Shown here piece by piece: positions 11,344-36,892 of a stretch of DNA of 64,000 nucleotides (position 1 is its first letter; every line of letters starts with the position of its first letter). The DNA is from Bacilli bacterium (GTDB taxonomy: Bacteria > Bacillota_I > Bacilli_A > ML615J-28 > CAG-698), in the NCBI GenBank assembly GCA_050953065.1, contig JBMNLZ010000003.1, positions 320,001-384,000 of the forward strand, given 5' to 3'. The position numbers and the translations under genes are program-made. The notes under the pieces are model-generated. The model did no database searches. It worked only from the letters and a program-made list of their open reading frames with translations, and was not told the DNA's origin.

Positions 11344-11544
11344 TTACAAATCTTCAATTTTTGGAATTTCGAGTATTATCTTTTCAATTTCATCAGATTT
11401 CAAACCAAGTCCCGCAAGTGCCTGCCTTGTTCCGCAAGTAGGGCATATCGGTGTTTGATTATCTACTCTTGAAATCGCTGGATGACCTTTATAATCCTTA
11501 CCACATAAAGGGCAAACTTTAATAAAATCAGTTGTTGTTTTCAT
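11344..11544 (-). CDS. Small zinc-ribbon protein
   Basis: CPLC...PAISR...CPTC. Confidence 0.75.
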   Translation of the reverse strand: MKTTTDFIKVCPLCGKDYKGHPAISRVDNQTPICPTCGTRQALAGLGLKSDEIEKIILEIPKIEDL

Positions 11545-12001
11545 TGCTAACCTCCATACTTTTTATTAGTGCTTCTTCTAGATACTTAGGACTAAATCCA
11601 AATGTTTTATAACCTTCAAGACAAGTTGTCACATAGAACTTTGATGGCATCCCTATCTCTCTATCTTCATGCATGATATAAACGAATGCTTGTTTTTGAT
11701 AGTTTTTGCCTGTCTTGATGCCTTTGATGTTAATTTCCATATCTGCTTTATAATAAAAGGTTGGATAACCTTCGTATCTATCAAGTGCCTGTTCATCAGT
11801 TTCAGTTACTTTCCAAATTGCAACTGGTAGTGATTTTCCTTCTGCTTTTTCAATGGTTAGGTAGCCACCAGTTTTACTTCCTTTAAAAAGAAGTTCATAG
11901 TCTTTAATAAACCCTGTTCCAACCACCCTAGCAGCTGGACATCTTCTTTTCATCTGGCTAACGTTTAGGTTGCTTCCATAAGCAATGTAATATTTACTCA
12001 T
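11528..12001 (-). CDS. Gamma-glutamylcyclotransferase-family protein
   Basis: YIAYGSNLN and LDRYEGYP motifs. Confidence 0.92.
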   Translation of the reverse strand: MSKYYIAYGSNLNVSQMKRRCPAARVVGTGFIKDYELLFKGSKTGGYLTIEKAEGKSLPVAIWKVTETDEQALDRYEGYPTFYYKADMEINIKGIKTGKNYQKQAFVYIMHEDREIGMPSKFYVTTCLEGYKTFGFSPKYLEEALIKSMEVSNENNN

Positions 12002-12012
12002 GCTGCACCCCC

Positions 12013-12975
12013 TTAAGCCGAAACCATAGAAGCAGGTCTTACCCCACTTCTAAAGCTTGCATCGCCAGATAGTCTCTTTGTTAAGAACTCTCTTGCTGTT
12101 GAGAACTCTTCACCGATAAATCCAAGTCTTAATAACCATGTTCTCATAGCATACTTTGGATTCTCGTTTTGTTGCGGCTTTGGAGAGGCTCCTTTGGCTT
12201 CCTTAGCCATTTGACTTAAGGCTAGGCATAATTGAATGTAACTCTTTAATTGGCCAGCGTGAAGGCCGTTTAGCTTGCCATCTTTAGGTGCATCAAATTG
12301 AAATAATCTAAATTCAATCGTTCCCTTTGTAAAGGTTGCATGGAAGTTTAGCATGTGGTATCTTGAACCGTTGTAATGGTTGCTTCTTGCATAATCTTCA
12401 TTATGGCTTTTGTACCAAACATCTGCAAAACCACTCATTGTTGAAGGTTTCTTTTTGTTTAAGTTTGCTAGAAATCTAGGATCAACCATTTTGCAGTATC
12501 TGCCGATTCTGTTTCTATCAAGTTCTAAGGCCTCTACTAATAATCCTTCGTGACTTGCCATGATGTTTGTTAGGTTTCTCATGGTTCTTGGTGTGTGTCC
12601 GTTAGCTCCAATGTGAATGTGAACTCCACACATTCTTGTTGCATCACTTTTTGCTCCAGCTTTTCTTAAAATTCTGACTATCTCTTGCAAGTCATCGATA
12701 TCTTCGTATTTAAGAATTGGTGTTACCATTTCGCATTTTTCATCGTCTAGTCCTGCAATGCTTACGTCCTTTTGAAACTTCCAAACTCTACCTTGTGTAT
12801 CCTTGCAAGCCCATGTTTGATATCCGTATTCAACGTGTGCGTTCCATGCTCTTGTTCCAAAGAATGCCGCTACTAGGTCTGCAGCTTTCTTTCTTTTAAT
12901 GTTGTTCATTTCAATCTCAACACCGATTGTTTGATTTTTCATGTTGTCGATTTGATTTTTGACTTTTTCTTTCAT
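12013..12975 (-). CDS. Amidoligase (COOH-NH2 ligase, Amidoligase_2) family protein
   Basis: GVEIE, CEMVTPIL, CGVHIHIG, RYHMLN, GTIEFR. Confidence 0.92.
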   Translation of the reverse strand: MKEKVKNQIDNMKNQTIGVEIEMNNIKRKKAADLVAAFFGTRAWNAHVEYGYQTWACKDTQGRVWKFQKDVSIAGLDDEKCEMVTPILKYEDIDDLQEIVRILRKAGAKSDATRMCGVHIHIGANGHTPRTMRNLTNIMASHEGLLVEALELDRNRIGRYCKMVDPRFLANLNKKKPSTMSGFADVWYKSHNEDYARSNHYNGSRYHMLNFHATFTKGTIEFRLFQFDAPKDGKLNGLHAGQLKSYIQLCLALSQMAKEAKGASPKPQQNENPKYAMRTWLLRLGFIGEEFSTAREFLTKRLSGDASFRSGVRPASMVSA

Positions 12976-13572: not shown

Positions 13573-13615
13573 TGTATATATATCACTCTAAACGCCTTTT
13601 ATATCAAGTCATTTG
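13573..13615 (-). promoter_or_regulatory. Cargo promoter copy 2
   Basis: Second copy of the 43-bp element; TTGATA -35 overlaps the methylase 3' end. Confidence 0.7.
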
Positions 13616-14888
13616 TGCTAGAATTATTATCCGCATTAACTTCAACTTGCTTGACAACTTCTGTGAATGTTACTTTTTGTCCGTTTCTAATACAATAAAC
13701 ATTATCGGCATCGCCTGTGTTTTCAACGTATCTTCTTAAAATTACAGACGCATACTTTTCATCAATTTCCATTGTATAACAGATTCTATTGGTTAGTTCG
13801 CAAGCCATCAAAGTTGAACCTGAACCACCAAACGTATCAACAACAATGGCGTTTTCTTGTGAGCTGTTTCTTAAAGGATATGAAAGAAGGTCTAGCGGCT
13901 TACTTGTCGGATGATTTTCATTTCGCTTTGGCTTTTTGAAGTTCCAGATAGTTGTTTGTTTTCTATCTGAATACCAGTTATGTTTTCCATTTTTCAAGAA
14001 ACCATAAAGTATAGGCTCATGTTGCCATTGATAATCTGATCTTCCTAAAACCAGCGAGTCTTTCACCCAAATGCAACAACCTGCTAAATGTAGCCCTGCA
14101 TCATGAAATGCGGTTCTAAAATTCAATCCTTCTGTATCTGCATGAAAACAATAAGCCGATGCACCGAGTTCACAGTGATCGACCATGTTCTTAAATGCCT
14201 TTAATAAGAATTGATAGAACTCTTCGTTTTTGAGTGAATCATTCTTTATTTTTAGTCCACTTGAACTAGTGAATGAAACCCCGTAAGGAGGATCTGTTAG
14301 GATCAGGTTTGCCCTCTTGCCTTCCATGAGTTTATTCACGTCATCTGCATTAGTAGCATCACCACATACCAAAACGTGACGTCCAACAATCCAGCGATCA
14401 CCATATTCTACGAATGCAGCTTTTTCTAAGACTTTCGTTAAATCATAGTCGTCATCTTCTATTTCAGCTTCATCACTTTTAAATAGGCTAGATAACTCTT
14501 TATCATCAAAACCAGTAAGCGATAGGTCAAAACCTAAGTCAGATAAACCTTCAAGTTCTACTGCTAACAGGTCTTCATCCCATCCTGCATCAAGAGCCAT
14601 ACGGTTATCTGCTATGATATATGCTTTCTTCTGAGCTTCAGATAAGTCTTCAACAAATACACATGGAACCTCTTTATATCCTTCTGCTTTGGCTGCAGCA
14701 AGTCTGCCATGTCCTGCGAGGACGTTATGATCTCTATCAATAATCAAAGGATTAATAAAACCAAACTCTCTAAGTGAAGATTGAAGCTTCTTGATTTGCT
14801 CCTTTGAGTGAGTTCTTGCATTATTAGCATAAGGCACTAACAAATCTACATTAACTAGTTTGAATTCTTTTACTGATGTCTTTGCCAT
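13599..14888 (-). CDS. ParB-like N-domain + N6/N4 DNA methyltransferase
   Basis: PYANNARTH/AGHGRL ParB domain; TDPPY, HPTSKP, DTFGGSGST; TAATG coupling to metK. Confidence 0.93.
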   Translation of the reverse strand: MAKTSVKEFKLVNVDLLVPYANNARTHSKEQIKKLQSSLREFGFINPLIIDRDHNVLAGHGRLAAAKAEGYKEVPCVFVEDLSEAQKKAYIIADNRMALDAGWDEDLLAVELEGLSDLGFDLSLTGFDDKELSSLFKSDEAEIEDDDYDLTKVLEKAAFVEYGDRWIVGRHVLVCGDATNADDVNKLMEGKRANLILTDPPYGVSFTSSSGLKIKNDSLKNEEFYQFLLKAFKNMVDHCELGASAYCFHADTEGLNFRTAFHDAGLHLAGCCIWVKDSLVLGRSDYQWQHEPILYGFLKNGKHNWYSDRKQTTIWNFKKPKRNENHPTSKPLDLLSYPLRNSSQENAIVVDTFGGSGSTLMACELTNRICYTMEIDEKYASVILRRYVENTGDADNVYCIRNGQKVTFTEVVKQVEVNADNNSSTNDLI

Positions 14889-15670
14889 TACACTAACCCC
14901 CATTCTGCAAATTTCTCGAAACCACCAAGATCACTAATAAACTCACGTGCGATCTCAACAATCTCTATATACGGTCTACCATCAATAATCTCATCGCCAA
15001 TAGCACATGAGAGTTCAATTGGTGTTCCTGTTTCTTGTGCTTTTAAGAAGCAATACACATTCAAGCTGACATCCGCTTTAGATAAGTCTTTACCATGAAG
15101 ACCTCCGCCAGTAACTGAATCAGCCATATCGGAACCTAGTTTTCTGTTGGTAGCACCTGAATCAACATCGATTCCACCAGTCCAGTCACCGATAGGATTA
15201 ATATCTGCATCGGGATAGACTCTTCTAAGTTCATCAGCTTTTGCATTACTTTGGCAGATGATAAGCCTTGTGCCATCTAAGATATACTTGCCATCACTGT
15301 TGTATTTAGCAAATAACTCTCTTGCAATGTTTGACAGCTTCTTTTGTTCAGCTGTTAGTGGCACTCCTTTAAATATTCCGTTATCACCACAACGAATCGT
15401 CCCTTTCTGGTTTTCAGCTAGGTGTATATCCTGCGGCACTTCTACATAGTCTATTTCAACGTTACCAGCAATTCTTTTAATGATTTCATTAACTTTATCT
15501 ACATCTAGCTGCGTGGATGTTTCAGTAATAACATGACATTTGCCATGACCTATCAACACTTCAACCGCTACTTTTGGATTTGTATCATACTCGTATGCAA
15601 GGTCAACAATAGCACCTGCAATACGGTCTGCAATTTTATCTGGATGTTTTGGATTTACTTTTTCGTACAT
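14888..15670 (-). CDS. metK: Short S-adenosylmethionine synthetase-like protein
   Basis: HPDKIADRIA, GDNG, DSGATNRK, GGGLHGKDLSKAD; only 260 aa. Confidence 0.85.
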   Translation of the reverse strand: MYEKVNPKHPDKIADRIAGAIVDLAYEYDTNPKVAVEVLIGHGKCHVITETSTQLDVDKVNEIIKRIAGNVEIDYVEVPQDIHLAENQKGTIRCGDNGIFKGVPLTAEQKKLSNIARELFAKYNSDGKYILDGTRLIICQSNAKADELRRVYPDADINPIGDWTGGIDVDSGATNRKLGSDMADSVTGGGLHGKDLSKADVSLNVYCFLKAQETGTPIELSCAIGDEIIDGRPYIEIVEIAREFISDLGGFEKFAEWGLV

Positions 15671-16320: not shown

Positions 16321-16671
16321 TCACTTACGATCACCTAGTTCATAATGTATCTTTGTATGACAGCTCTGGCATAGCGACATAAGATTATTAAACTGGTTAG
16401 TTCCGCCACTAGAAAGAGGTACGATGTGATGAACCTCTTCAACAGGTGTGATTCTTCCTTCCTTTAAACATCTCTCACAAAGTGGATGCTTCTTTACATA
16501 CAGCCCACGTATACGTTTCCAATTGTTACCATACTTCTTATCATGATTCGGTGCTCTATTGTGACGATCATATTGTTTCTGTCTTAATGAAGAGTGCTCC
16601 TCACAATAAGAATCTAACGTAAGTTTAGGACAACCAGGAAATGCACATGGCTTCTTTGGTTTACTTGGCAC
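16321..16671 (-). CDS. Terminase-associated HNH endonuclease
   Basis: CERC, EVHHIVPLSSGG, NLMSLCQSCH. Confidence 0.94.
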   Translation of the reverse strand: MPSKPKKPCAFPGCPKLTLDSYCEEHSSLRQKQYDRHNRAPNHDKKYGNNWKRIRGLYVKKHPLCERCLKEGRITPVEEVHHIVPLSSGGTNQFNNLMSLCQSCHTKIHYELGDRK

Positions 16672-24386: not shown

Positions 24387-24983
24387 TCAAAATTTGTCTA
24401 CAATTTTTTCTCTAAGCATTTTTATAAGACTTGATTTCTTGTATTGAACCGTTGATCGTTTCAAACCCATAGCTTTAGCGATTTGATCATCTGTGTAACC
24501 ATCGTTGAATAGTTTCAGTATTTTCTGACTCTCTTCATCTAAAAGCGATAGTTCACGTTTGAGTGCTTTTCTCATTTCAGCATTAGCGAACGCTTCTTGA
24601 GGTGTTTCTGTGGAAGTGTCTGCAATTTCATAGTTGTTGTCTTCCATAAAGCGATCTAAGGATAAAGGCCTACCATCTCTTTGTGTTTTACCGAATGGAC
24701 AATTATTACAGTCTTCTTGACACCTTTTCATGTATGAGTACCTTTCTGAAGGAACTAAGCATCTGCTTTCGTTATCCCTTTGTCTTTTTTCTTCTGCCAG
24801 CATGTTTCGCCAATCATAGAAAAACTGGATATCACAAGGCACATACATTCTTTTTCTTTTGATGCTATTAAAGTAAGAACAGTAACGCATCTCATCTTCT
24901 GGTTTCTTGTCTTTGTTGTACTCAGCGATAGCTTCTTTGATTTCTTCTTCACTTGAGTACTCGTCTTTTAGTTTTTTAATCAT
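24387..24983 (-). CDS. Phage sigma-70 region-4 protein with Cys cluster
   Basis: CLVP...RCQEDCNNCPF, LSLD, C-terminal HTH TDDQIAKAMGLKRSTVQYKK; GGAGGA RBS. Confidence 0.85.
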   Translation of the reverse strand: MIKKLKDEYSSEEEIKEAIAEYNKDKKPEDEMRYCSYFNSIKRKRMYVPCDIQFFYDWRNMLAEEKRQRDNESRCLVPSERYSYMKRCQEDCNNCPFGKTQRDGRPLSLDRFMEDNNYEIADTSTETPQEAFANAEMRKALKRELSLLDEESQKILKLFNDGYTDDQIAKAMGLKRSTVQYKKSSLIKMLREKIVDKF

Positions 24984-24989
24984 TAAAAA

Positions 24990-25190
24990 ATCCTCCGTTT
25001 CAAAATTTCTTTTAGAAATGGAAGATCTTTTAATGCAGTCCAAGCGTTATTCGGGCATAGCAAAAAGAACGGTGAACCTTTTTCAAGATTTCCATTTCTA
25101 TTTGCAGTCCACTCCCACAGCTTTCTGCGTTTTTTTTGTGTGTTTTGGATAGTCCTACGTGGGATGCAGCGATATCTTCTGCAGTAGTGA
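24990..25190 (-). promoter_or_regulatory. Structured 5' leader with alternative RBS-sequestering / anti-sequestering helices
   Basis: 25013-25028 is complementary both to RBS segment 24990-25001 and to 25086-25100. Confidence 0.65.
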
Positions 25191-25256
25191 CTTCCTTAAC
25201 ACAATGCCAAAACTACTTATCTCAAATTTTTTGTTTAATATAAATTACTTGAGATA

Positions 25257-25285
25257 TTGTGTATTTCGGCTATTCGTGATATAAT
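25257..25285 (+). promoter_or_regulatory. Sigma-70 promoter of Lamassu operon
   Basis: TTGTGT-17 bp-TATAAT with TGn extension. Confidence 0.75.
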
Positions 25286-25422
25286 TATTTAAAAGAATAC
25301 GCTCAATAGTTATCACTGATTTTGCCTTACACGTTTTGACAAGATAATTTTACTAAAAAGAGTATTAGCAGCGGTAAGCACGAAATTAGCCTAAAATTAG
25401 CAAATTCAAAGGAGGTTTCATT

Positions 25423-26601
25423 TTGTTAAGATTGTCTTCGTTTTTAAATCTCTCGTTTAACCACAGATTGAATTTAAGTGATGATCAATATACTTTCGGC
25501 TATGATTTTTTTTATGAACTAGCCGAATTAGAATTGGAAAAACCATATAACAACAACCTTTTTAATGGCGTCAGAGACCTTACAAATAATGCAAAAACAT
25601 CTATTCTTACTACCGATAATGGTAAGAAGAAAGCTGCGAAATTTATTACAAATTGGCTAATACCATCTATTCAACCTTTAACCTTTCATGATTATATTTC
25701 GTCTATAGTTTCTATAATTGAAAACGATGATACAATTTCTGACAAAAGCAAAAATGGTTTATTAAAACCTTTAAAAGATGGAAAGCATGATGTATTTCTT
25801 TATAAATCATTTATGTATGCTATTGCCAAAGAAAATATAGATATAAAAAGCACCATCGAAGTTGATGATGCTGAGTTTGTGTTTGAATCAAATAAAAAAT
25901 GCTCATTATGTAACACTCCTATTGAAGTTAAAAAAGCAAAAGGCACTGCATACAAGTATGGTATAACTAATATCTTTCCTGAAGGATTATCTTCTTCACT
26001 TAAAACGAACTTTACTAAAATACATAAAGAGCCTGCCGATTTTGACCATCGTTCAAATAAAATCTGCTGTTGTATACCATGTGCTGATGATTATGAAGCA
26101 ACACCAACAACTGATAAATTCATAAAACTTTTATCTAAAAAAGAACATTACAATAAAACTAACGAAGCAAACTCAAGTCTAGGAAGAGCAAAACTTGATG
26201 AAGAATTAAATAGCCTATTAAAAGAACTCAAAAATCTTAAATCTTTTGATGATATTGCAGATTTTAGAAAAATACCATTAGAACTTAAGGACAAGATTTC
26301 CGATAATGAGACTTTGAGATTATCCATAAAAAATGATGTTGAAAGCTACTATAATTATTTAAGAAAACAACTATCTGATTTAGATGATGTTGGAAGTGAG
26401 TTTAGAATAATTGCAAGTCAATTCCAAATTTGTTATGAAAAACTATTAAAATCTATGAGCGATCAAGAAGATATATATAATAGAATAATCAAATGGGTAC
26501 TTGAAGAACTAGGATTTACAGAAAAATATTACACAGCAGCAAGAATTATTGTTTCATTCTTCGTGCAGAATTGTGAGGTATTCGATGAAATTTCCAAATA
26601 A
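25423..26601 (+). CDS. Lamassu/ABC-3C effector (LmuA-like): N-terminal domain + degenerate HNH + CTD
   Basis: TTG start with GGAGGT; CSLC...NKICCCIPC; C-terminal IVSFFVQNCEVF typical of ABC-3C CTD. Confidence 0.8.
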   Translation: MLRLSSFLNLSFNHRLNLSDDQYTFGYDFFYELAELELEKPYNNNLFNGVRDLTNNAKTSILTTDNGKKKAAKFITNWLIPSIQPLTFHDYISSIVSIIENDDTISDKSKNGLLKPLKDGKHDVFLYKSFMYAIAKENIDIKSTIEVDDAEFVFESNKKCSLCNTPIEVKKAKGTAYKYGITNIFPEGLSSSLKTNFTKIHKEPADFDHRSNKICCCIPCADDYEATPTTDKFIKLLSKKEHYNKTNEANSSLGRAKLDEELNSLLKELKNLKSFDDIADFRKIPLELKDKISDNETLRLSIKNDVESYYNYLRKQLSDLDDVGSEFRIIASQFQICYEKLLKSMSDQEDIYNRIIKWVLEELGFTEKYYTAARIIVSFFVQNCEVFDEISK

Positions 26602-26815
26602 AGTGACACCTTTTAAAGATAGCACCCTTGCCAAAATTCCTATGATTCTCAAATGTTTAAAAACTAAGGATTATACAATACTTTCTCTATTCAATGTCGT
26701 AAGAAAAAAAATGACGATTAAAGAATATATTGATGTCCTAGATTGTTTATATGCATTAGACAAAATCGTTTTAAAGGAGGAAATCATTCATTATGTTGAC
26801 CGAAATATATTGTGA
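26585..26815 (+). CDS. ABC-3C middle component (LmuC-like)
   Basis: MKFPNKVTPFKDSTL...LDCLYALDKI; overlaps both neighbours. Confidence 0.82.
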   Translation: MKFPNKVTPFKDSTLAKIPMILKCLKTKDYTILSLFNVVRKKMTIKEYIDVLDCLYALDKIVLKEEIIHYVDRNIL

Positions 26816-28445
26816 TAAATTTAAGACTGGTGGTAAAGATGGTCAGATTCGCCCAGCTATTAATTTCGATGCTGGACTAAATGTTGTTGAAGGATCTGAT
26901 AATGGTTCAAACTCAATAGGCAAATCAACGTTTTTAATGATCATTGACTTCTGTTTTGGCGGAAATGATTATGTTAATGTATTAAAAGATGTTGATAAAA
27001 ATGTAGGACCTCATACAATTTTCTTTACTTTTTCTTTTGATAAACATTACTTTTTTGCTCGCAAAACTGATGAGAAAGATTTCGTATATATTTGTAATCA
27101 AGGTTATGTCTTTACAGATCAGAAACTTTATATTAATGATTTTTGTGAATTTTTAAGAGAAAAATATAATATACCTGTTCTCGACTTAACTTTTAGAAGC
27201 ATCGTTAGTAGATTCATGAGAATTTACAACAGACAAAATCTAAATGAACTCCTTCCGCTTCGTGCTCATGATAATGAAACAGAAAAGCAATCGTTACTAG
27301 AAATGACAAAGATGTTTAACTTATATGAACCTTTAAAAGAGTTAACAAGAATTAGTGATGAAGCAAGTGAAATGGACTCTACTTTTAGTAAAGCTCAGGA
27401 ATATAAATTTATTCCTAGAATCAATGCTACTGAATTTAAGGATAATGAAAAACGTATTGAATCTTTAAGACTTGAAGCTGAAACACTAGCAGATAGAAGT
27501 GAACGTGGATTACTTGATTTACCAGTAGAAAAAGCAGAACAAATTGCTCGTTTGAAAGAACAAATCTCTGCACTAAAACGTAATCGATCAAGATTTTATA
27601 ATCAACTAAATGCTTATAAACAAGATAACGGGTATGAGATCGTTGGATTAAAAAGCGATTTTTCTGAGTTAAGTGAATATTTCAATAATGTCAATGTTGA
27701 GAATTTAATTCAAATTGAGGAGTTTCATAAAAAAATTACTTCTATTCTTAGAAAAGAAATCAAGAGTTCTATTCAAGAAATGTGGGATAATATTAATTTG
27801 CTTAATGAGGCAATAAAAGGACTTGAAAATGAATTAGCAGACATACAACAAACTACAAACGTTTCAAGAGTAATATTAAAATCCTATTACACAATTGAAC
27901 GTGAAATAGAAAATTTAGAAAAAGCTAATGAATTATATATTAAAAAAGGCGATTGGCATAAGGATGCACAAGAAAAAGAAAAATCTTTAACTGAAAAAAC
28001 GGCAGTTCAAATAGCAACTTTGATAGCTAAAATAAATGCCAAAATGTTAGAAATTAATAAAGAGTATTACAAAAATGAGACAAATTCACCTATATTAGCT
28101 ATCCCCTCTCCTAAAAAATACTTATTTGAAACTCCAGATGATCTAGGCACTGGATGTAGATATAAAGGTATGATTACATTAGATATGGCTGTATTACAGC
28201 TTTCATCACTTCCAGTTTTAGCTCACGATTCATTAATGTTCGTTCAGATGTCATATCCTCGTGTTGAAAGAACATTTAAACTTTATAATCAAATATCAAA
28301 TAAACAGATATTTGTTGCTGTTGACAGAACAACAAATCTAAATGATGAATCAAGAGAGATTATTAAGTCACATACAAAACTTTATTTATCACCAGATGGC
28401 AATGAACTGTTCGGTTGGTACTGGGGTAAACCGAAGGAGGTATAA
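26793..28445 (+). CDS. SMC/Rad50-like ABC ATPase, DUF2326 type (LmuB-like)
   Basis: GLNVVEG...NSIGKST Walker A, long coiled coil, GTG signature, VLAHDS Walker B. Confidence 0.88.
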   Translation: MLTEIYCDKFKTGGKDGQIRPAINFDAGLNVVEGSDNGSNSIGKSTFLMIIDFCFGGNDYVNVLKDVDKNVGPHTIFFTFSFDKHYFFARKTDEKDFVYICNQGYVFTDQKLYINDFCEFLREKYNIPVLDLTFRSIVSRFMRIYNRQNLNELLPLRAHDNETEKQSLLEMTKMFNLYEPLKELTRISDEASEMDSTFSKAQEYKFIPRINATEFKDNEKRIESLRLEAETLADRSERGLLDLPVEKAEQIARLKEQISALKRNRSRFYNQLNAYKQDNGYEIVGLKSDFSELSEYFNNVNVENLIQIEEFHKKITSILRKEIKSSIQEMWDNINLLNEAIKGLENELADIQQTTNVSRVILKSYYTIEREIENLEKANELYIKKGDWHKDAQEKEKSLTEKTAVQIATLIAKINAKMLEINKEYYKNETNSPILAIPSPKKYLFETPDDLGTGCRYKGMITLDMAVLQLSSLPVLAHDSLMFVQMSYPRVERTFKLYNQISNKQIFVAVDRTTNLNDESREIIKSHTKLYLSPDGNELFGWYWGKPKEV

Positions 28446-28447
28446 AA

Positions 28448-28648
28448 ATGGTTAGTTATAATAAATTATGGAAACTGCTTATTGATAAAGGACTAAATAA
28501 AAAAGAGCTAATTAAGCTCTCAGGTGTAAGTTCTTCTTCAATTGCTAAAATGACAAAAGGACAAAACGTTACAACTGATGTCTTATGTAAAATTTGTGCG
28601 GCTTTGAGTTGTGACTTTAAGGATATAATGGAGTACATTTCAAAATAA
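28448..28648 (+). CDS. Cro/CI-type HTH protein (HTH_26)
   Basis: MVSYNKLWKLLIDKG...VLCKICAALSC. Confidence 0.9.
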   Translation: MVSYNKLWKLLIDKGLNKKELIKLSGVSSSSIAKMTKGQNVTTDVLCKICAALSCDFKDIMEYISK

Positions 28649-28707: not shown

Positions 28708-31401
28708 TTAATTATTGTCAAATAATTTAGGATTAGAATCAACAATATCTGTAGTTTTTAGTTTTGTGCCAGTTATCTTAACTCTGCCCGCCATAATGTC
28801 ACTTGACTTGTAAATATTATAATCCATCTTGCTGGCCGCTGCTAAGTTCATAGCCGCCCAGGCTTTTGCCCCAACAACTTTATCATCGATTTTGTTGTCA
28901 CCTTTAACTTCAACAATCTCAACAGTACCATTTTTATAAAATACTAAAATGTCTGGATAGTAATTACGTATTACATTTGATTCAGGATCAATGTATTGAA
29001 CTGATAGTCCATTTTCAGATCCAGTAAACATTCCAGTAAAATACACCTCTTCGACTTGATCGGACTCTATTAAATCCATGAATAGTCTCTTTTCTGGTTC
29101 TGAATCGAAGCAATACCTGTCAACATGAAAGCTCTTTCTTGAATACTTCGTTACAAATGGATCATTTATCCCAATAGTAAGTTCTCTCTTAGTTCTGAAT
29201 ACAAAATGATCTGCTTTGTTTCCATATTTTATTAACGGTACCTTCTTCTGAACAGTTTCTACACTCTCTTCAATATTATAAAGATAATTAAAAACTGCAG
29301 GTATTAACTCATCATATAAAATATCATTATACTGAGTGATGAGTTCTTTAATCTTATCAAAACATCCAGTTTTTTCTAATATCTCTCTAATTTTAAGAGG
29401 CTCTTCATTTAAATATCTTGATACTTCAAAAACAATTGTATACTTACTAAATGGCTTATTTTCATCTGATATAAACTCTGACTTAGACTCGCCAAAACGA
29501 GTATCAATGCCTTTTTTCACAATCAATTTAGATTTATACTTCTCAACATCAATTTTATCAATATCAAATTTCATTGGATAATGAGTTTTTTTAGATTTAA
29601 GAGTATATGATTTTCTAATTTCTTCCAGACTCAGTTCTTTAACTGGGGGTACAATTTTAATCAAATAATCTACTTTATTATCTATCTTATCAGTCATATC
29701 TTTAATATCTATATTGAAGTTCTTTCTTAGTTCATCATCTAGAATTTTGTAATTTTCACTTGATAAATAAACATGAGCTATTTGTTGAGTTTCTGTAATG
29801 CTTCTCAAACAACGCATTGTTGATTGAAGTACAAATATTTTTGATTTTGGTGATCTATATAATGCCACAGAAAATAATGATCTACAATTCCAACCTTCTC
29901 TCCCCTTATTAACTAATAATAGAACTTGTTTTTGACTTCCATGCGTTCCAATAACATCAAGGTCATTAAAATCCTTAATGTCAGCATCCTTTGTTATAGT
30001 AGAATCTCCTACATTGACTAGAATTGTTGATATGTCAATACCTAAATCATTTAAGATGCCTTCAACAATTGGTTTTATTTCATTGGTAACTTCTTTAATT
30101 TCTGCACCAAATATCGCTATTTTAGGTTTTAAGCCTTCATACAAATTATCGCCATAATATTTGAAAAAATGCGTTAAAATCCTACGTAAAAATTCTTCAT
30201 TTTTTACATTATCATATCCTTGAATTTCAACTTCTTTTAGATAGCCATTTCGGATAGCATCATTTAGCTCATATGCATAAACTACCTCAGGCAGAATTTT
30301 GTTTTCTACATATGGAGTACCAGTATAGTTATAACAAGCTACTAATTTTGTTGAACGCTTTTCAAGTACTTCTGCAATTTTATTAATCGTATAACGTAGT
30401 GACGTTTCTGAATTATCATCTGATAAAGATTTTTTTAAGTCTGTTCCAAACAAGTGATGAGCTTCATCAACATATACACCTAATTGATTTAACCTGATTA
30501 TTTTCTCAAATCTTTGGTTAGCTGTTACTTCCTTTTCATCTTTTAATGAATCTAAATCACCATATAGTTTTTTTGTGAAATCATCAAGTCCTTCTAGTTC
30601 TAATTGAACTTGTTCATAAGAATCATTCATGAACTTGTCAACAGCATTCTTTTCTTTATGCACTTCTTTAAGAATAATCTTCTGCGTATTAGAAATAATT
30701 ATATTATAATCACTACCATCGATAGTGTTTAATGTTGTAGAATTGTCATCTAAAAAATGGAATTTAACATTAGCAGCCAAAAAACTGACATATTCTGTAG
30801 GAATTACTTTCTTAAAATCGAAGGTTTTGATTTCTTTTAATGATTGAAGTACAGTTTTATCAGGAGCAAAAACTAAAACGTTATGGCAAAATCTCTTATC
30901 TTTAGGATATTTACTTACAAGAATAAATTCATAAAAAATACAAGTTGCCATGAGAATTGTTTTGCCAGTACCCATTGTAAGTGCATAAATATAATTTGGA
31001 TATTTTTGATTTTGGTTAGAAAGCATGTCAAAAACATCATTGTAAACATCTGCTGTTATGTCATCAAAAAGGTTACCCATTCCAATTGAAGTGTAACTTT
31101 TAGTTTTACGTGAATATGGATCACGCATTTCAAATCTACCTTTATGATTATACCAATCAGCAAACATATCTTTTACCGATTGATTATTGAGAAACTCTTT
31201 AATTAGTACATAAATTTCTAAAGCTTCAAATTGTGGTTTTCTAAGAAACGCATTAGGATTCTTTTCTTTATCATTAAAATCAAGAATTTTTTTACTGACA
31301 TCTTTATAGCTCTTTCTAATCGAGTTCTTTTTGAAATTATAAAAATCTAATAAGGCATCGTAGAAAGGATAATCATTTGTAACTATTTTTTTCTTAGCCA
31401 T
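28708..31401 (-). CDS. res: Type III restriction endonuclease Res subunit
   Basis: LRKPQ, MGTGKT, DEAHH, EGWN; C-terminal YYPDILV...VEVKG nuclease; TAATG coupling to mod. Confidence 0.88.
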   Translation of the reverse strand: MAKKKIVTNDYPFYDALLDFYNFKKNSIRKSYKDVSKKILDFNDKEKNPNAFLRKPQFEALEIYVLIKEFLNNQSVKDMFADWYNHKGRFEMRDPYSRKTKSYTSIGMGNLFDDITADVYNDVFDMLSNQNQKYPNYIYALTMGTGKTILMATCIFYEFILVSKYPKDKRFCHNVLVFAPDKTVLQSLKEIKTFDFKKVIPTEYVSFLAANVKFHFLDDNSTTLNTIDGSDYNIIISNTQKIILKEVHKEKNAVDKFMNDSYEQVQLELEGLDDFTKKLYGDLDSLKDEKEVTANQRFEKIIRLNQLGVYVDEAHHLFGTDLKKSLSDDNSETSLRYTINKIAEVLEKRSTKLVACYNYTGTPYVENKILPEVVYAYELNDAIRNGYLKEVEIQGYDNVKNEEFLRRILTHFFKYYGDNLYEGLKPKIAIFGAEIKEVTNEIKPIVEGILNDLGIDISTILVNVGDSTITKDADIKDFNDLDVIGTHGSQKQVLLLVNKGREGWNCRSLFSVALYRSPKSKIFVLQSTMRCLRSITETQQIAHVYLSSENYKILDDELRKNFNIDIKDMTDKIDNKVDYLIKIVPPVKELSLEEIRKSYTLKSKKTHYPMKFDIDKIDVEKYKSKLIVKKGIDTRFGESKSEFISDENKPFSKYTIVFEVSRYLNEEPLKIREILEKTGCFDKIKELITQYNDILYDELIPAVFNYLYNIEESVETVQKKVPLIKYGNKADHFVFRTKRELTIGINDPFVTKYSRKSFHVDRYCFDSEPEKRLFMDLIESDQVEEVYFTGMFTGSENGLSVQYIDPESNVIRNYYPDILVFYKNGTVEIVEVKGDNKIDDKVVGAKAWAAMNLAAASKMDYNIYKSSDIMAGRVKITGTKLKTTDIVDSNPKLFDNN

Positions 31402-33131
31402 TATTCCACCTCAATTTCGAGCGATTCAGAAAGTAGGTCTGTAATTTTAATTTTAATTCTTCCATGTTTGGATGGTATTTTATATGAACCATCAACCAAT
31501 TTGTTTTTTTCAGGAATATCAATTATCTGCGGATTAAGTATAAAACCATCGTATTCATAATCTATCATAATACTATCCACTAACTGTTTCCAATCATCAA
31601 CCAATTCCTTTTGAAGAGATAATTTTTGCAGTAAATTCATTGGATAAAATTCTTTAATAGTAAGTTTATCACCTTTTACTTCTATCTCGGCTTGGGCATC
31701 ACGCTTAAATTCTAAATCAGATTTATCTCTTAAAATGTCCACAATTTCCACATCGATCTTGAATTTTGAATTGCCAACAGCTTGCAAGAATGCACCTTTT
31801 AAATCTGATTCGTGCCCCATACAAACTAGTGTTATTCTATCAACAGGTTCATTTGGATTTTCGTCAGCTAATTTTTCATACATTTTATACGGCAAATTGT
31901 TTATTAATGGTTCAAGATCAGCTTTTGTAGCAATTCTATTCACAGGAAGAATCTTAACATGTCGTCCATCAAGTTCACCATCAAAAACATGGCTTTCTGA
32001 AAAAGCTTGAATTTCTAATGCTTCAATTAAAAGTTCACGTGCCTCTATCGGATTTCTAAAGAAATCATAATTATTTACATTATATACCTCAAATCCTGTT
32101 TTCATTGAAATAAATAAATTATTATCTTCTAAAATACTAATAATTCTTTTAGTTGAAATTTGAACTGCACCTAAATTAATATCAGCACCGATAAAACGTC
32201 TATTTTTCTTTAAAGCAACAGCTTGTGTTGTTCCTGAACCCATAAAGCAATCAAAAACTATATCTCCTTCATTTGAAGATGCATCAATAATTCGCTCAAT
32301 AAGTGCTTCTGGTTTTTGTGTTGGATACCCTAATCTTTCTAATGCTTGAGAATTAATATAAGGAATATCCCATACATCTCTCATCCCAGACCATCTATAT
32401 ACACCAGATTCGTCTTCAAAAAATTCTGTATCAGCAGCTCCATAATTCACAACTCCTGCTTTACGTCCTTTTGCCTTTGTATAAGACTTTTCTTTTTGTT
32501 CATTAAAATTTCTATCTGCAGTTTTTGAATAAAACAATATATTATCATGCTGTTTATTAAATTCACCTTTTGCCCCTGATGCTGTTCTGTAAGACCATAT
32601 TATTTCATTTACAAATTTATCAGGCCCAAATACTTCGTCCATTAGCATTCTAAGATGGTGCACCTTGTGCCAGTCACAATGTAGGTAAATTGATCCCTTA
32701 TCACTAAGTAGTTCTCGTAATAAAATCAAGCGTTCATACATAAATTGAAGATACTCATCATTTGTCCATATATCACCATATTGCTTTTCTTCAAACATAT
32801 TCTGGTCATTATAAATTGATTTCTTTCCCTTTAATTCTATTTTTTTCTTATAATTTGCTTTTGAATCAAAAGGCGGATCTATGTAAATAAGATCAATCAT
32901 TCCCCGATAATCCCTTAAAAGATGGCTCATAACTTGTAGATTATCTCCCCAGAAAATCTTATTTAGCCATTCTGACTCATCAGCTTCACCGTATTTTTCT
33001 TTTAATTGTGCAGGGAAGAATTGAGTAGATGTATAAGGTCTTTTACCTGTCCACCTCAATTCGGGATATCCCTTAATTACAGGTTTATTAAAATTAAATA
33101 AATCCATTGTTTCATTTTTTTCTTTGCTCAT
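31401..33131 (-). CDS. mod: Type III R-M methyltransferase Mod subunit
   Basis: GDNL, IYIDPPF, YPTQKPE, DCFMGSGTT. Confidence 0.9.
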   Translation of the reverse strand: MSKEKNETMDLFNFNKPVIKGYPELRWTGKRPYTSTQFFPAQLKEKYGEADESEWLNKIFWGDNLQVMSHLLRDYRGMIDLIYIDPPFDSKANYKKKIELKGKKSIYNDQNMFEEKQYGDIWTNDEYLQFMYERLILLRELLSDKGSIYLHCDWHKVHHLRMLMDEVFGPDKFVNEIIWSYRTASGAKGEFNKQHDNILFYSKTADRNFNEQKEKSYTKAKGRKAGVVNYGAADTEFFEDESGVYRWSGMRDVWDIPYINSQALERLGYPTQKPEALIERIIDASSNEGDIVFDCFMGSGTTQAVALKKNRRFIGADINLGAVQISTKRIISILEDNNLFISMKTGFEVYNVNNYDFFRNPIEARELLIEALEIQAFSESHVFDGELDGRHVKILPVNRIATKADLEPLINNLPYKMYEKLADENPNEPVDRITLVCMGHESDLKGAFLQAVGNSKFKIDVEIVDILRDKSDLEFKRDAQAEIEVKGDKLTIKEFYPMNLLQKLSLQKELVDDWKQLVDSIMIDYEYDGFILNPQIIDIPEKNKLVDGSYKIPSKHGRIKIKITDLLSESLEIEVE

Positions 33132-33138
33132 AATTTAA

Positions 33139-35982
33139 TTACCTCCTCTTACAATAAAATCTTAAATCACAGTTTTTACAAATCTTAAGATCACTACATC
33201 GTTCTTCAAATTTTTTATTTTCTATTTTATCTACAACATCATCCAGAATCTTTATCGTTTCTTTTATTTGAGTGTCATCTTTTTTAAACGACAGATATGG
33301 ATTACCAGCAATTTCACTAGTGTAATATACTTTCATTCCACTAACTTTTACATCATACTTCTTTTCTATTAAGTACGCATATATTTCTAGTTGTCTTTTT
33401 ACTCTTTCAACCTTATCGATTTCTTTATTTAATATTGGTTTTTTCTCAGTTTTAAAGTCAAGCACTTCATATTGTCCTTTATCATTCAATATTAGATCAA
33501 CCTTACCGTTAAGTATATATTTCTTTTGTGATAAACTAATAGGCAATTCAGCATCTTTTATGATGTCCCAATTTTCAGATGCTCTTGCAACATAGGACAT
33601 TACTTGGTCAAATGCAGATTTTATGCTAGTTTCGTTTAAATAATAGTTATTTAATTTAGAAGCTGTTTTATAGTTAATCTCTAGCCACTTGCTGATATTA
33701 TCATCTGTAACTGTATCAATTTCACCTTTTACTACTGCTTTATGAATATCCTCAATTGTTTCATGGACAATAGTTCCAAATAAGGTTGAACCTATTCTAA
33801 CTGGTTCAAATCCTAATTCTTTAAAATATTTATATTGAGTAGGACAAATCAAATAAGCATTTATATCACTTGTAAAAGAGTATGCATTTTTAATATCTGT
33901 GTTTTTGATATCTTCAAAATCAAAATTTGTAAAATTAACTTCATATGGCAAATAATTATATATGTATTCAAAATATTTACTTGGTTCATTAGATTTTGAT
34001 GCATCACATAACATTATTAGCAGAGATTGAGCTCTTGAAAATGCAACATAATATAATCTCCAAAAATCAAACATTTTCATCATCTCAATTTCTTCAAATG
34101 GCCCTCTTCCTGAATATCTTGAAATGATATCTTCGATGTCTTCGATATATTGTTTTCTTGGAGTAGAGCTTTGTGAACCAACAAAAACTATAGGAAATTC
34201 TAGTCCTTTTGATTGGTGAATTGTCAAAAATGAAACACATCCACTTGGTGCATACTCACTTTCATCTTCATACTCTGTAATTCCGCCTTCATAAAGGAAT
34301 CTGATATATTGATTAAATAATCTTTCTACCATTTTGTCTATGTTTAATTTTGTTAAAACGGATACATTATTTAGATACTCGAACTTCACCAATAGTTTAA
34401 TCAACAAACCTACATTTCTAGATATTCTTGTATCGGTTATATTCTTAGTTAAATCAACACTAAGCAATGAGCGAAAAGGTTCAAATTCTAACATTTGATA
34501 TAACAATCCAGAAAATGAATAATCTAGTGATTTACTCATAAACATATGATCTTTTGTTCTGAATCTCATCCAGTTAAAGAAGTTTTTATATTCAGGTTTG
34601 GATAATTCATCTTTTGCTTCCATAAGGCAAGATTGATAATAAAAATTCATTTCTTTAGATTCCTCATTTTTTTGTACTTTTGTTGCATATTTAGGAAACA
34701 TAAAGATCAAACTACCCAATATTAGTTTCGTCTCATGTCTATCAAAAAAAAGATTTGATCGCGGAGAATATACAGGTATTTCATTTTTTTCAAGATAATC
34801 TGCTAAAGATTTAACACTTTCGTTTTTTACAGATCTAAACAAGAATGCAATCTGATTTAAATCTTTTATTTTACCTGAATCTATTAGTTTATTTATTGTA
34901 AGTAGAGTTTTTTCATTTATATAATCTTTTTCTTTAGTAGAACATTGTATAACTGCCGTTTCGACATATTTATCAGTTCTGACAGCAACTATTTTTTTCT
35001 CATATCTATACTTGCCCCAATCAAAATCAAAGCCTCTACCGTCTGTTGAATCCATCCATTTATTATAGAATTTAACAATGTCTTTATTTGAACGATAGTT
35101 TTTAATTAAAGCTATCTTTTTACAATTGTCAAAATGTTTAGGAAATTCTAAAATGTTTCTAACTGTGGCTCCTCTAAATCTATAAATTGCTTGGTCATCA
35201 TCACCCACAACACAAATATTGTTGCGCTTAGAACCAAAAAACATAGCTAGTTTCTCTTGTATGTGGTTTGTATCCTGATATTCATCAATCATTACATAAT
35301 CTATTGAATTAATAATTTTGTTAGCTACTTCAGGATAAGCTTTCAACATTTTATAGGTTTCAACCTGTATAGATGAAAAATCCAAGAAGTTATTTTCTAT
35401 TCTTAAACTTTCATAAGTTTGGATTAGTTTCCCAAAAAATATATAAGTTGGATTATCGCTTTTTAGTAATTCTTCATAATCAATCAATTCTTCGTTTAAT
35501 CGATTAACATACTTTAATATTGATTCGCATTTATCCCAAAAAGACCGAGTAGATATATAATTATCAAAGTTCTCAATCGCTTTGAAATCGCTAAAATGTT
35601 GATATATGAAATATTGTTGATCAAATTGATCTTTAAGATTAAAGTTCTTTTTTAAACTAGTATAGGCTATATTTTCTTTTAAAATTTTTAAACAAATAGA
35701 GTGAAAAGTACCTAAATACATCTCATTAGGATTAAATTCTATATTGTTCTCATTTAATGCATTTGAAAGCCTTGTTATCAATTCATTTGCCGCTTTATCA
35801 GTAAATGTTGAAAATAAAATATTAGATGGTGAAATTTTTTTATTGACGATCAGATTTAAAGCTCTATTAATAAGTGTATAGGTCTTACCAGTACCTGGGC
35901 CAGCAATAACTAATAATGGTCCTTCAGTCGACAATATTACTTTTAATTGATCGTCATTAGCTTTCTTAAATTTTAATTTCAT
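33139..35982 (-). CDS. UvrD/SF1A helicase fused to AddB-like PD-(D/E)XK nuclease
   Basis: AGPGTGKT, DEYQD, GDDDQAIYRFRGA, TIHQSKGLEF, YVAFSRA; GKVDL, DFKT, QLEIY, CKNCDLRFYC. Confidence 0.92.
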   Translation of the reverse strand: MKLKFKKANDDQLKVILSTEGPLLVIAGPGTGKTYTLINRALNLIVNKKISPSNILFSTFTDKAANELITRLSNALNENNIEFNPNEMYLGTFHSICLKILKENIAYTSLKKNFNLKDQFDQQYFIYQHFSDFKAIENFDNYISTRSFWDKCESILKYVNRLNEELIDYEELLKSDNPTYIFFGKLIQTYESLRIENNFLDFSSIQVETYKMLKAYPEVANKIINSIDYVMIDEYQDTNHIQEKLAMFFGSKRNNICVVGDDDQAIYRFRGATVRNILEFPKHFDNCKKIALIKNYRSNKDIVKFYNKWMDSTDGRGFDFDWGKYRYEKKIVAVRTDKYVETAVIQCSTKEKDYINEKTLLTINKLIDSGKIKDLNQIAFLFRSVKNESVKSLADYLEKNEIPVYSPRSNLFFDRHETKLILGSLIFMFPKYATKVQKNEESKEMNFYYQSCLMEAKDELSKPEYKNFFNWMRFRTKDHMFMSKSLDYSFSGLLYQMLEFEPFRSLLSVDLTKNITDTRISRNVGLLIKLLVKFEYLNNVSVLTKLNIDKMVERLFNQYIRFLYEGGITEYEDESEYAPSGCVSFLTIHQSKGLEFPIVFVGSQSSTPRKQYIEDIEDIISRYSGRGPFEEIEMMKMFDFWRLYYVAFSRAQSLLIMLCDASKSNEPSKYFEYIYNYLPYEVNFTNFDFEDIKNTDIKNAYSFTSDINAYLICPTQYKYFKELGFEPVRIGSTLFGTIVHETIEDIHKAVVKGEIDTVTDDNISKWLEINYKTASKLNNYYLNETSIKSAFDQVMSYVARASENWDIIKDAELPISLSQKKYILNGKVDLILNDKGQYEVLDFKTEKKPILNKEIDKVERVKRQLEIYAYLIEKKYDVKVSGMKVYYTSEIAGNPYLSFKKDDTQIKETIKILDDVVDKIENKKFEERCSDLKICKNCDLRFYCKRR

Positions 35983-36185
35983 TTGCTGTTCTCACTATTT
36001 ACAACACTAATATTATTTTCTTTACATAATTCTACAATTTTTCTCTTTGTCTTAATAGTTGGTTCGTACCTACCTGTTTCCCACCTATTGATTGATGCAA
36101 AGGACACACCAAGCAAATCAGCAAACTCCTGTTGAGATAAAATGAGTTTTTCTCTTAATTCTTTCACTATTCGTTGATAGTCCAT
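35979..36185 (-). CDS. XRE-family HTH regulator
   Basis: LSQQEFADLLGVSFASINRWETG; ATGA coupling to helicase. Confidence 0.92.
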   Translation of the reverse strand: MDYQRIVKELREKLILSQQEFADLLGVSFASINRWETGRYEPTIKTKRKIVELCKENNISVVNSENSK

Positions 36186-36539: not shown

Positions 36540-36892
36540 TGGTGGAATAGGGGGGAGTTGAACCCCCGTCCAAACTACAATCCATACTAATCTCTACATG
36601 CTTAGTTCATTGTAATAGTTTTAATTTATCAGTCAACATAGAACTAACTACTAATAAACTAGCTCTTTAATCTCGAAATCTTAGTAAGAGCATTCTAAGA
36701 TTTCATCCCCTAATGTCTTGCTCTTTATAAAGAACCTTAAGGGGTAATTCTTTACAAGAGTGCTACTATTTAATTAAGCAGCAAAAGCTAAATTTTGTGT
36801 TCCGGTTATTAAAAAAACCTCGGCGTTTTTACTAGCGCAACCTAGGCATGCAATTAGAACTTCAAATAGCCTGTCGAATCCAGAACTATCCC
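36540..36892 (-). ncRNA. ssrA: tmRNA; tag (A)GTQNLAFAA* at 36774-36803
   Basis: GGGATAG/CTATTCC-ACCA acceptor with G3.U, GGATTCGAC 5' motif, GGTTCAACTCC T-arm, near smpB. Confidence 0.95.

Follow-up and report, generated by a model that had tools for sequence, protein, structure and literature searches.

What does an operon of the Lamassu/ABC-3C type do for a prophage when its effector no longer carries the histidines of a working nuclease, and when it stands divergent from the early genes, where a repressor would normally be expected? The question is raised by four tightly packed, co-directional genes (25423-28648, + strand) in a stretch of 64,000 nucleotides from a Bacilli bacterium (contig JBMNLZ010000003.1, positions 320,001 to 384,000; the whole stretch is called the window from here on), which encode a CTD11 effector, an MC7 middle component, a DUF2326 LmuB-like ATPase and a protein of the HTH_26 family (HTH, helix-turn-helix). 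Our answer, held with even confidence and no more, is that this is a lysogen-expressed member of the Lamassu/ABC-3C systems (CTD11-MC7-DUF2326 type) in which the nuclease output has been replaced by a non-nucleolytic one. Judged by sequence, the sensor parts (ATPase, middle component and CTD11 docking domain) are intact and conserved, and a conserved all-alpha N-terminal domain of ~140 amino acids (aa) is added to the effector.

Sensor and effector of the operon

The genes of the operon and the domains of its effector are as follows.

25423-26601, + strand: effector, 392 aa, with a TTG start and GGAGG at 25411-25415, 7 nt upstream
25423..25842, + strand: N-terminal domain of the effector (aa 1-140), an eight-helix all-alpha model with no Pfam model and no structural match
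25885..26106, + strand: HNH-derived zinc-ribbon/beta-beta-alpha domain of the effector (aa ~155-228), both catalytic/metal histidines absent (alignments A1, A3)
26173..26583, + strand: CTD11 docking domain of the effector (aa 251-387), Pfam PF20277 E 2e-26, score 93.6 bits (cut-off 27.7)
26585..26815, + strand: middle component MC7, 76 aa from the likely ATG at 26585, Pfam PF20292 E 3e-19, phrog_6259
26793..28445, + strand: ABC/SMC-like ATPase, 550 aa, DUF2326 E 8e-12, PADLOC LmuB E 6e-14, phrog_5467 E 3e-131
28448..28648, + strand: small XRE regulator encoded last in the operon, 66 aa, Pfam HTH_26 E 2e-17 (alignment A4)

A preliminary description of the locus, made from the sequence alone, had called it an ABC-3C/Lamassu operon, and the profile matches listed above bear this out: with a docking C-terminal domain (CTD), a small middle component and an SMC/ABC-type ATPase all present, the profiles assign the operon to this superfamily. 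The open reading frame (ORF) of MC7 as listed spans 26549-26815, and the MC7 gene overlaps both of its neighbours. PADLOC also returned its candidate system PDC-M68, with PDC-M68A matching at E 1.9e-5 over aa 208-388 only and PDC-M68B at E 3e-9, weaker than the LmuB model. For the HTH_26 protein the nearest NCBIfam model is VanU (E 3e-20, below the cut-off). The window ATPase matches Rad50 weakly and has intact Walker A and HDS motifs.

Related loci were collected by a scan of one genome per species, in which 170 pattern matches gave 162 confirmed stretches and the best 80 of these were retained. Their effectors comprise 32 long ones (at least 330 aa), 46 short ones and two fragments; by long form we mean the effector with the N-terminal domain (392 aa in the window), and by short form an HNH-CTD11 effector of ~250-295 aa. 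All 32 long-form ATPases keep both the Walker A motif NSIGKS and the HDS aspartate; among the 40 short-form ATPases, 39-40 keep the former and all 40 the latter. Given that both motifs are equally well kept in the two forms, the sensor is not decaying.

It is the effector that is unusual, as its N-terminal part holds no recognisable enzymatic or otherwise toxic domain of the kind that defines ABC-3C/Lamassu effectors. The HNH-like domain (CSLC...SNKICCCIPC) was correctly described before as keeping its zinc cysteines and asparagine while both histidines are replaced: N183 stands at the first histidine position and A221 at the second, whereas an intact phage HNH elsewhere in the window (16321-16671) reads HHIVP...CQSCH. 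The general-base histidine and the metal-binding histidine or asparagine after the second CxxC, which together mark an HNH nuclease, are thus not found. In alignment A1 (28 long proteins and 7 short relatives of ~262-270 aa) histidine occurs at the general-base position in 1/28 long proteins and at the post-CxxC position in 0/28, as opposed to both histidines in 7/7 short relatives, and in a wider set of 62 long proteins it occurs at position 183 in six and at position 221 in one. A wide range of residues occupies the first position (N, K, Q, R, S, E, D, P, T, Y), and at the second, alanine stands in 42 of the 62; the cysteines are largely retained (C160 in 62/62, C163 in 56/62, C217 in 58/62 and C220 in 47/62), and the asparagine is also conserved. 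Among the 80 genome loci, all 23 long forms resolved by motif pattern end in CxxC[A/S/G] and all 43 short forms so resolved have AHI[FY]P and CxxCH. As the histidine loss is common to the whole long-form family, it is a conserved trait and not a local decay, and the HNH-like domain is, by its sequence signature, catalytically disabled and a putative zinc scaffold. In structural searches (Foldseek) the middle domain of the full model met the HNH domains of Cap5, McrA and Cas9 with probabilities of 0.57-0.94 and E-values of 0.4-0.8, and the whole effector model matched best a YydD-YydB integrative model over 147 columns, every E-value being above 0.3. A whole-effector sequence search gave 55 relatives, and one short relative carries Pfam HNH_2. 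A literature search that did not take in the ABC-3C classification of Krishnan et al. 2020 turned up no publication on a CTD11 system whose HNH is inactive.

The N-terminal domain is modelled with high confidence, both in the full effector (pLDDT 90-98 across aa 1-140, mean 86.6 for the whole model) and alone (pLDDT 94.3, pTM 0.88, eight helices), and a sequence search with it returned 119 clusters at E<=0.001. Foldseek with the domain model found nothing at E<=0.001 in the PDB (best 0.44, TM <=0.30) or BFVD (best 0.65), and no HTH protein was among the PDB matches; Pfam gave no match in effector aa 1-250, the families of effector-associated domains (EADs) included, the whole-effector profile met no PDB chain below E 0.04, and the ESM Atlas had no usable match. 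One reading of these residues found no support. The preliminary description had seen in the N-terminal ~140 aa a resemblance to the recognition helix of an XRE regulator, and an XRE-like HTH was rejected on an hhalign probability of 0.2% against the profile of the cassette's own HTH_26 protein, on the lack of a fold match and on the acidic charge of the domain (pI 5.9 in the window; median 4.9 in 22 relatives, with one above 8). Its account of the operon type, of the repressor position (see below) and of the histidine loss stood.

The domain is not confined to CTD11 effectors. In Streptococcus phage Javan630 (locus L088, 1-4519) a CTD6 effector, MC2 and an AAA_23 ATPase occupy the same slot, opposite a Sigma70_r4_2 gene, and the first 138 aa of this effector are homologous to the window domain (hhalign 98.1%, E 1e-13), with no HNH remnant in the protein. 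Christensenellales phage NatCom_6392 (L089, 3769-8472) carries the same CTD6 system with an HTH_26 gene directly after it. Searches with the Javan630-type domain gave 48 proteins, 46 of them with CTD6, one with NACHT and one without a Pfam domain. Given that the CTD6 forms have the N-terminal domain without the HNH remnant, it is this domain, and not the HNH scaffold, that is the shared output module. In one cluster (protein P0219, 468 aa) it is fused to a NACHT NTPase domain, an architecture suggesting that sensor NTPases of more than one kind may use it as their output. A single contrasting case is phage NatCom_9291 (L090, 4446-7762), in which CTD6-MC2-ATPase genes with a different N-terminal domain lie after McrBC genes on the same strand; the upstream spacer is short and without obvious phased repeats, and a Pfam scan of one downstream gene found no HTH_26.

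Position in the prophage and in related loci

The operon had been described as divergent from the first lytic gene of a prophage that shows no CI repressor with an S24 peptidase in the window, and both statements were confirmed. The gene opposite the effector is the following.

24387..25043, - strand: sigma-like early phage gene, 218 aa, Sigma70_r4_2 E 1.8e-4, phrog_13787 and phrog_1740 (sigma factor), divergent from the operon

Its product has a C-terminal region-4-type HTH and matches NCBIfam sigma70-ECF at E 6e-8, below the cut-off. A Cys4 motif (RC..P...KRC.E.C..CP) precedes the HTH in this protein and in its relatives in loci L007, L011, L012, L013 and L034 (alignment A8). No Peptidase_S24 or other repressor-like protein was found in the scanned window ORFs (30 + 8 + 14), and a cleavable repressor of the CI/LexA type (HTH plus S24) is not among them, the sole XRE genes of the window encoding 66 and 68 aa; the left end of the prophage falls outside the window. 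Neither is CI annotated in the whole records of phages Javan422 and Javan630 or in the examined parts of phiStag1.

The same arrangement recurs well beyond the window. All five records of the GenBank phage collection that have a window-type ATPase place the cassette opposite early genes (sigma-like, Ant or primase), and their effectors have the N-terminal domain and the histidine-less C..C...C..C layout. The nearest sizeable upstream gene is divergent and of the Sigma70_r4 type in 10/34 long-form loci against 0/46 short-form loci (128 proteins scanned), and the nearest upstream gene is a DUF4417 gene in 9/34 against 0/46; three further long-form loci match the window sigma-like protein by phmmer. 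The repressor position holds in all five of these phage records and in many of the 34 long-form genome loci, and the form with the N-terminal domain does recur opposite sigma-like genes. Where downstream sequence sufficed, a small HTH gene directly follows the ATPase on the same strand in 18 of 30 long-form loci and in 1 of 44 short-form loci, this last one (L023) being a fragment of the long form. Near long-form loci lie DUF2800 exonuclease, Enc34-type SSB, Ant or holin genes, and downstream of the cassette type III mod, SNF2, DruA, Abi_2 or MamI; short forms lie beside restriction-modification, Thoeris, AbiE, Schlafen or KAP genes, or beside housekeeping genes.

The operon layout is conserved in Bacillota, Mycoplasmatota, Bacteroidota and Actinomycetota. 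In a quick ATPase tree 33 of 36 long-form rows fall in one clade (SH-aLRT 96), so that the associations of the long form represent one or few ancient events; long and short ATPases are intermixed, and a Streptococcus/Ruminococcus phage trio stands apart from the main long-form clade. In locus L021 an intact cassette lies in an island that also holds ResIII, GmrSD and type III mod genes, and the gene upstream of the cassette (8788-9336) is a truncated sigma-like gene, 76% identical over 121 aa to that of L025 and missing the HTH part; this copy weakens the idea that the sigma-like gene is an obligatory part of the module. In locus L003 (Streptococcus phage PhiSdyV1524-fexAoptrA) the cassette and XRE gene adjoin annotated optrA, fexA and an IS6 transposase, indicating that cargo accumulates next to the cassette.

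As to the prophage itself, all genes from 207 to 25043 lie on the - strand and look like those of a siphovirus (tape measure, tail, head, protease, portal and terminase); after the terminase, toward the operon, come HNH, RusA, primase, helicase, Sak4-like ATPase and DUF2800 exonuclease genes and then the sigma-like gene. Between packaging genes lie a pair encoding an amidoligase and a gamma-glutamyl cyclotransferase (11528-12975) and a ParB-like/DNA methyltransferase fusion (13599-14903). At the DNA level, the module from terminase to capsid shares 67-70% identity with 180 phage records, most of them Streptococcus prophages and Ca. Heliusvirales. No integrase was found in the window; relatives of this phage have serine recombinases at the far prophage end, and the equivalent place here is beyond the left edge of the window. 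On the other side of the operon the following features were found.

28708-31401, - strand: type III restriction res
31401-33131, - strand: type III mod
33139-35982, - strand: UvrD-helicase/PD-(D/E)XK (Cas4-like) fusion, 947 aa
35979-36185, - strand: XRE gene, 68 aa, overlapping the UvrD fusion
36540-36892: host tmRNA gene

Host ssrA-smpB-rnr genes flank this right side. The GC content drops from ~0.37 in the phage body to ~0.29 from 26 kb on, with host-like values of 0.28-0.30 in the defence run (28708-36185), which may be prophage cargo or a separate ssrA-side island.

Promoter and leader repeats

Two elements stand out in the intergenic region.

25277..25285, + strand: extended -10-like element TGATATAAT, read by eye and a consensus match only, ~140 nt upstream of the effector start
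25382..25401, + strand: two direct repeats, GAAATTAGC and AAAATTAGC, their starts 11 bp apart, immediately before the ribosome-binding site

A simple sigma-70 scan of 25044-25422 found no two-hexamer promoter, and the distance of the extended -10 from the effector start implies a long leader. GTGATAxAAT-like elements also lie upstream in related loci and phages, and Javan630 and NatCom_6392 have, as does the window at 25277-25285, an extended -10 of the GTGATAxA type, in their case ~110 nt upstream.

The window contains no tandem pair besides GAAATTAGC/AAAATTAGC, and single copies of GAAATTAGC are not enriched (29 found, 28.9 expected); in loci L007 and L008 no part of the intergenic region is better conserved than the repeat block. 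In other long-form loci the same place is taken by two to four direct repeats, which differ clearly in sequence from those of the window and are spaced at 10-11 or 20-22 bp. At the positions of the window repeats, Javan630 has three TTCGGAAA units and NatCom_6392 four CGGAC units. Exact phased repeats of at least 8 nt between -120 and +30 were found in 17 of 36 long-form and 4 of 45 short-form upstream regions, and they beat 95% of shuffles in 17 of 36 and 3 of 45, respectively. No RNA family of Rfam was detected in the operon region, and since the leader folds no better than its shuffles (z 0.04), an RNA switch is not indicated; the helical phasing of the repeats points instead to a DNA operator, and they are probably an operator that sets or shuts off expression of the operon.

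Several proteins could be considered as readers of these repeats. The HTH_26 protein is an unlikely one, as its recognition helix is near-constant across loci with different repeats (e.g., L001 and L008; the proteins are 42-74% identical, and the recognition-helix region is nearly constant in alignment A4). The HNH scaffold cannot be the common reader, because CTD6 effectors have repeats without the HNH remnant. The sigma-like protein is a weakened candidate, not being present at every locus, and so is the N-terminal domain with its acidic charge. TCGCAA, TTGCGA, GCGAAC and GTTCGC words cluster round the conserved -10 in L001, L002, L007, L008, L016-L019, L061, L070 and L089. Words of the TCGCAA/GCGAAC type occur in 12 of 18 long-form loci with the HTH gene, 3 of 14 without it and 5 of 45 short-form loci, with none in the window, and may be a candidate operator of HTH_26.

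Immune output or lysogeny switch

Lamassu is described (bioRxiv 10.1101/2025.04.02.646746; PMC10586767) as one LmuA held on an LmuB dimer with LmuC, and DNA-end binding as the step that leads to release and oligomerisation of LmuA. By analogy with the solved Lamassu, the ATPase dimer and the middle component in the window would hold one effector by its C-terminal domain, DNA ends or replication intermediates together with ATP hydrolysis would release the effector, which would then oligomerise, and the released N-terminal domain would act on a target without cutting DNA. Likely outcomes would be the exclusion of a superinfecting phage or a growth arrest that spares the prophage's own DNA, and a non-cutting output would suit a prophage that must survive its own replication. 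A lambda lysogen transcribes rexAB together with cI, in a direction that diverges from the early lytic genes; the operon would similarly be transcribed away from the early genes with its small XRE regulator.

Comparison with known systems shows what is shared and what is not. Short Lamassu systems with the order LmuA-LmuC-LmuB (e.g., the Cap4-type DdmABC of Vibrio cholerae) also consist of an effector with a docking CTD, a small middle component and an SMC/ABC-like ATPase, but the window effector has no working enzymatic domain, and the window-type system has an extra linked HTH_26 gene, a fixed prophage slot and phased leader repeats. The short-form HNH-CTD11/MC7/DUF2326 ABC-3C systems (PADLOC candidate PDC-M68) have the CTD11, MC7 and ATPase families in common with the window, yet keep AHI[FY]P and CxxCH, are found in restriction-modification, Thoeris, AbiE or Schlafen islands, lack the N-terminal domain and the HTH_26 gene and have few leader repeats. 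The CTD6/MC2/AAA_23 systems of Javan630 and NatCom_6392 resemble the window in the homologous N-terminal domain, the slot opposite a sigma-like or HTH gene, the GTGATAxA-type -10 and the phased repeats (NatCom_6392 alone also in the HTH_26 gene after the ATPase), and differ in the families of docking domain, middle component and ATPase and in having no HNH remnant. With lambda cI-rexA-rexB the likeness is that a repressor-type gene shares its transcript with an exclusion system; the proteins themselves have no relation to each other, the regulator gene is last here and first in lambda, and HTH_26 would be no more than a candidate phage repressor. A Lamassu lineage with intact LmuB and LmuC and no recognisable effector enzyme (Clade O) is described in 10.1101/2025.04.02.646746 and may or may not be the window family.

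An immune role agrees better with the intact L021 cassette, the NACHT fusion and the neighbouring defence genes than a lysogeny switch does. Several points weigh on the other side. The anti-phage activity of the CTD11-MC7-DUF2326 long form is a prediction, PADLOC offering only the candidate PDC-M68 with weak matches; no activity of the N-terminal domain can be predicted, given that Pfam, the PDB sequence profile, Foldseek against PDB and BFVD and the ESM Atlas were all without a match; the long-form correlations rest on few independent events; and the strict slot opposite the early operon together with the absence of an annotated CI is also what a lysogeny module would be expected to show.

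Such a module is the foremost alternative, one that we regard as unlikely but to be taken seriously. In it the sensor would detect DNA ends and release the effector, whose N-terminal domain and/or disabled HNH would change transcription; the effector may bind the phased repeats, or its target may be the XRE protein or the sigma-like product of the early gene, and DNA damage or superinfection may so be coupled to derepression without RecA. The slot is the same in all five phage records and in the two CTD6-version phages, with Sigma70_r4-type or DUF4417 genes upstream of long forms and of none of the 46 short ones, and CI was seen neither in the phage records named above nor in the scanned window ORFs; in L021, however, the cassette is retained within a GmrSD/type III island beside a sigma-like gene that is truncated. 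It is precisely the phage-borne forms that have lost the nuclease residues, but the CTD6 effectors have repeats without any HNH remnant, and the N-terminal domain is acidic, has no HTH-like fold match and no similarity to HTH_26. That the repeats, phased at 10-11 bp, differ between loci is operator-like; their place, however, is at the ribosome site of the operon itself, with ~340 bp between them and the sigma-like gene, and the window has no other such pair. Transcription-linked elements do exist (the XRE gene and the leader repeats), yet 12 of 30 long-form loci have no downstream HTH gene by phmmer, and phage immunity repressors are usually much less conserved than the HTH_26 protein with its 42-74% identity. 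The single fusion of the N-terminal domain to a NACHT NTPase and the other defence genes that commonly follow the cassette also speak against a switch.

Alternatively, and with rather poor odds, the N-terminal domain could be an adaptor that recruits or sequesters a partner protein encoded elsewhere, like the effector-associated domains of NTPase conflict systems. An all-alpha, acidic domain without a recognisable catalytic motif, heading three sensor scaffolds (CTD11, CTD6 and one NACHT protein), would be in keeping with this, but the EAD families of Pfam remain unmatched and no second gene with the domain was seen beside the long-form cassettes. It is very improbable that the HNH-like domain is still a nuclease by way of other residues: its Cys4 scaffold and asparagine are conserved and it is mildly basic (pI 8.3 in the window, above 8 in 24 of 62), and against this the general-base position varies freely, the second histidine is mostly alanine and the CTD6 relatives do without the domain. 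A decaying, non-functional system, as the lost catalytic residues and the GC of 0.29 against 0.37 in the phage body might suggest, is hardly credible in view of four intact ORFs, conserved ATPase motifs, confidently modelled folds, 119 clusters with this architecture and a layout conserved over four phyla.

The current understanding of Lamassu systems is that of sensors which set a destructive enzyme free, and here a large, conserved sub-family has intact sensors and no enzyme. A previously unnamed helical output domain is common to two unrelated ABC-3C scaffolds; in addition, a regulator gene is linked to the sub-family, its repeats resemble operators, and in a common prophage lineage it keeps a fixed place facing the early genes. 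A short defined DNA element and a small set of proteins give concrete handles for testing. If the system is immune, as we favour, it would represent a new kind of non-nucleolytic effector, carried by a prophage without self-harm. If it is regulatory, it would give a first example of lysogeny control in a phage that makes use of an SMC-like immune sensor. A bolder proposal, which we put forward as a rather unlikely one, is that a widespread lineage of gut and streptococcal prophages has taken over a whole branch of Lamassu-type DNA-end sensors for signalling and not as a suicide weapon, the released N-domain effector resetting the divergent early and lysogenic promoters via the phased operators or the sigma-like protein. 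Were this true, phages without CI would have a RecA-independent means of sensing DNA breaks or superinfection, and with it of deciding whether to stay or leave.

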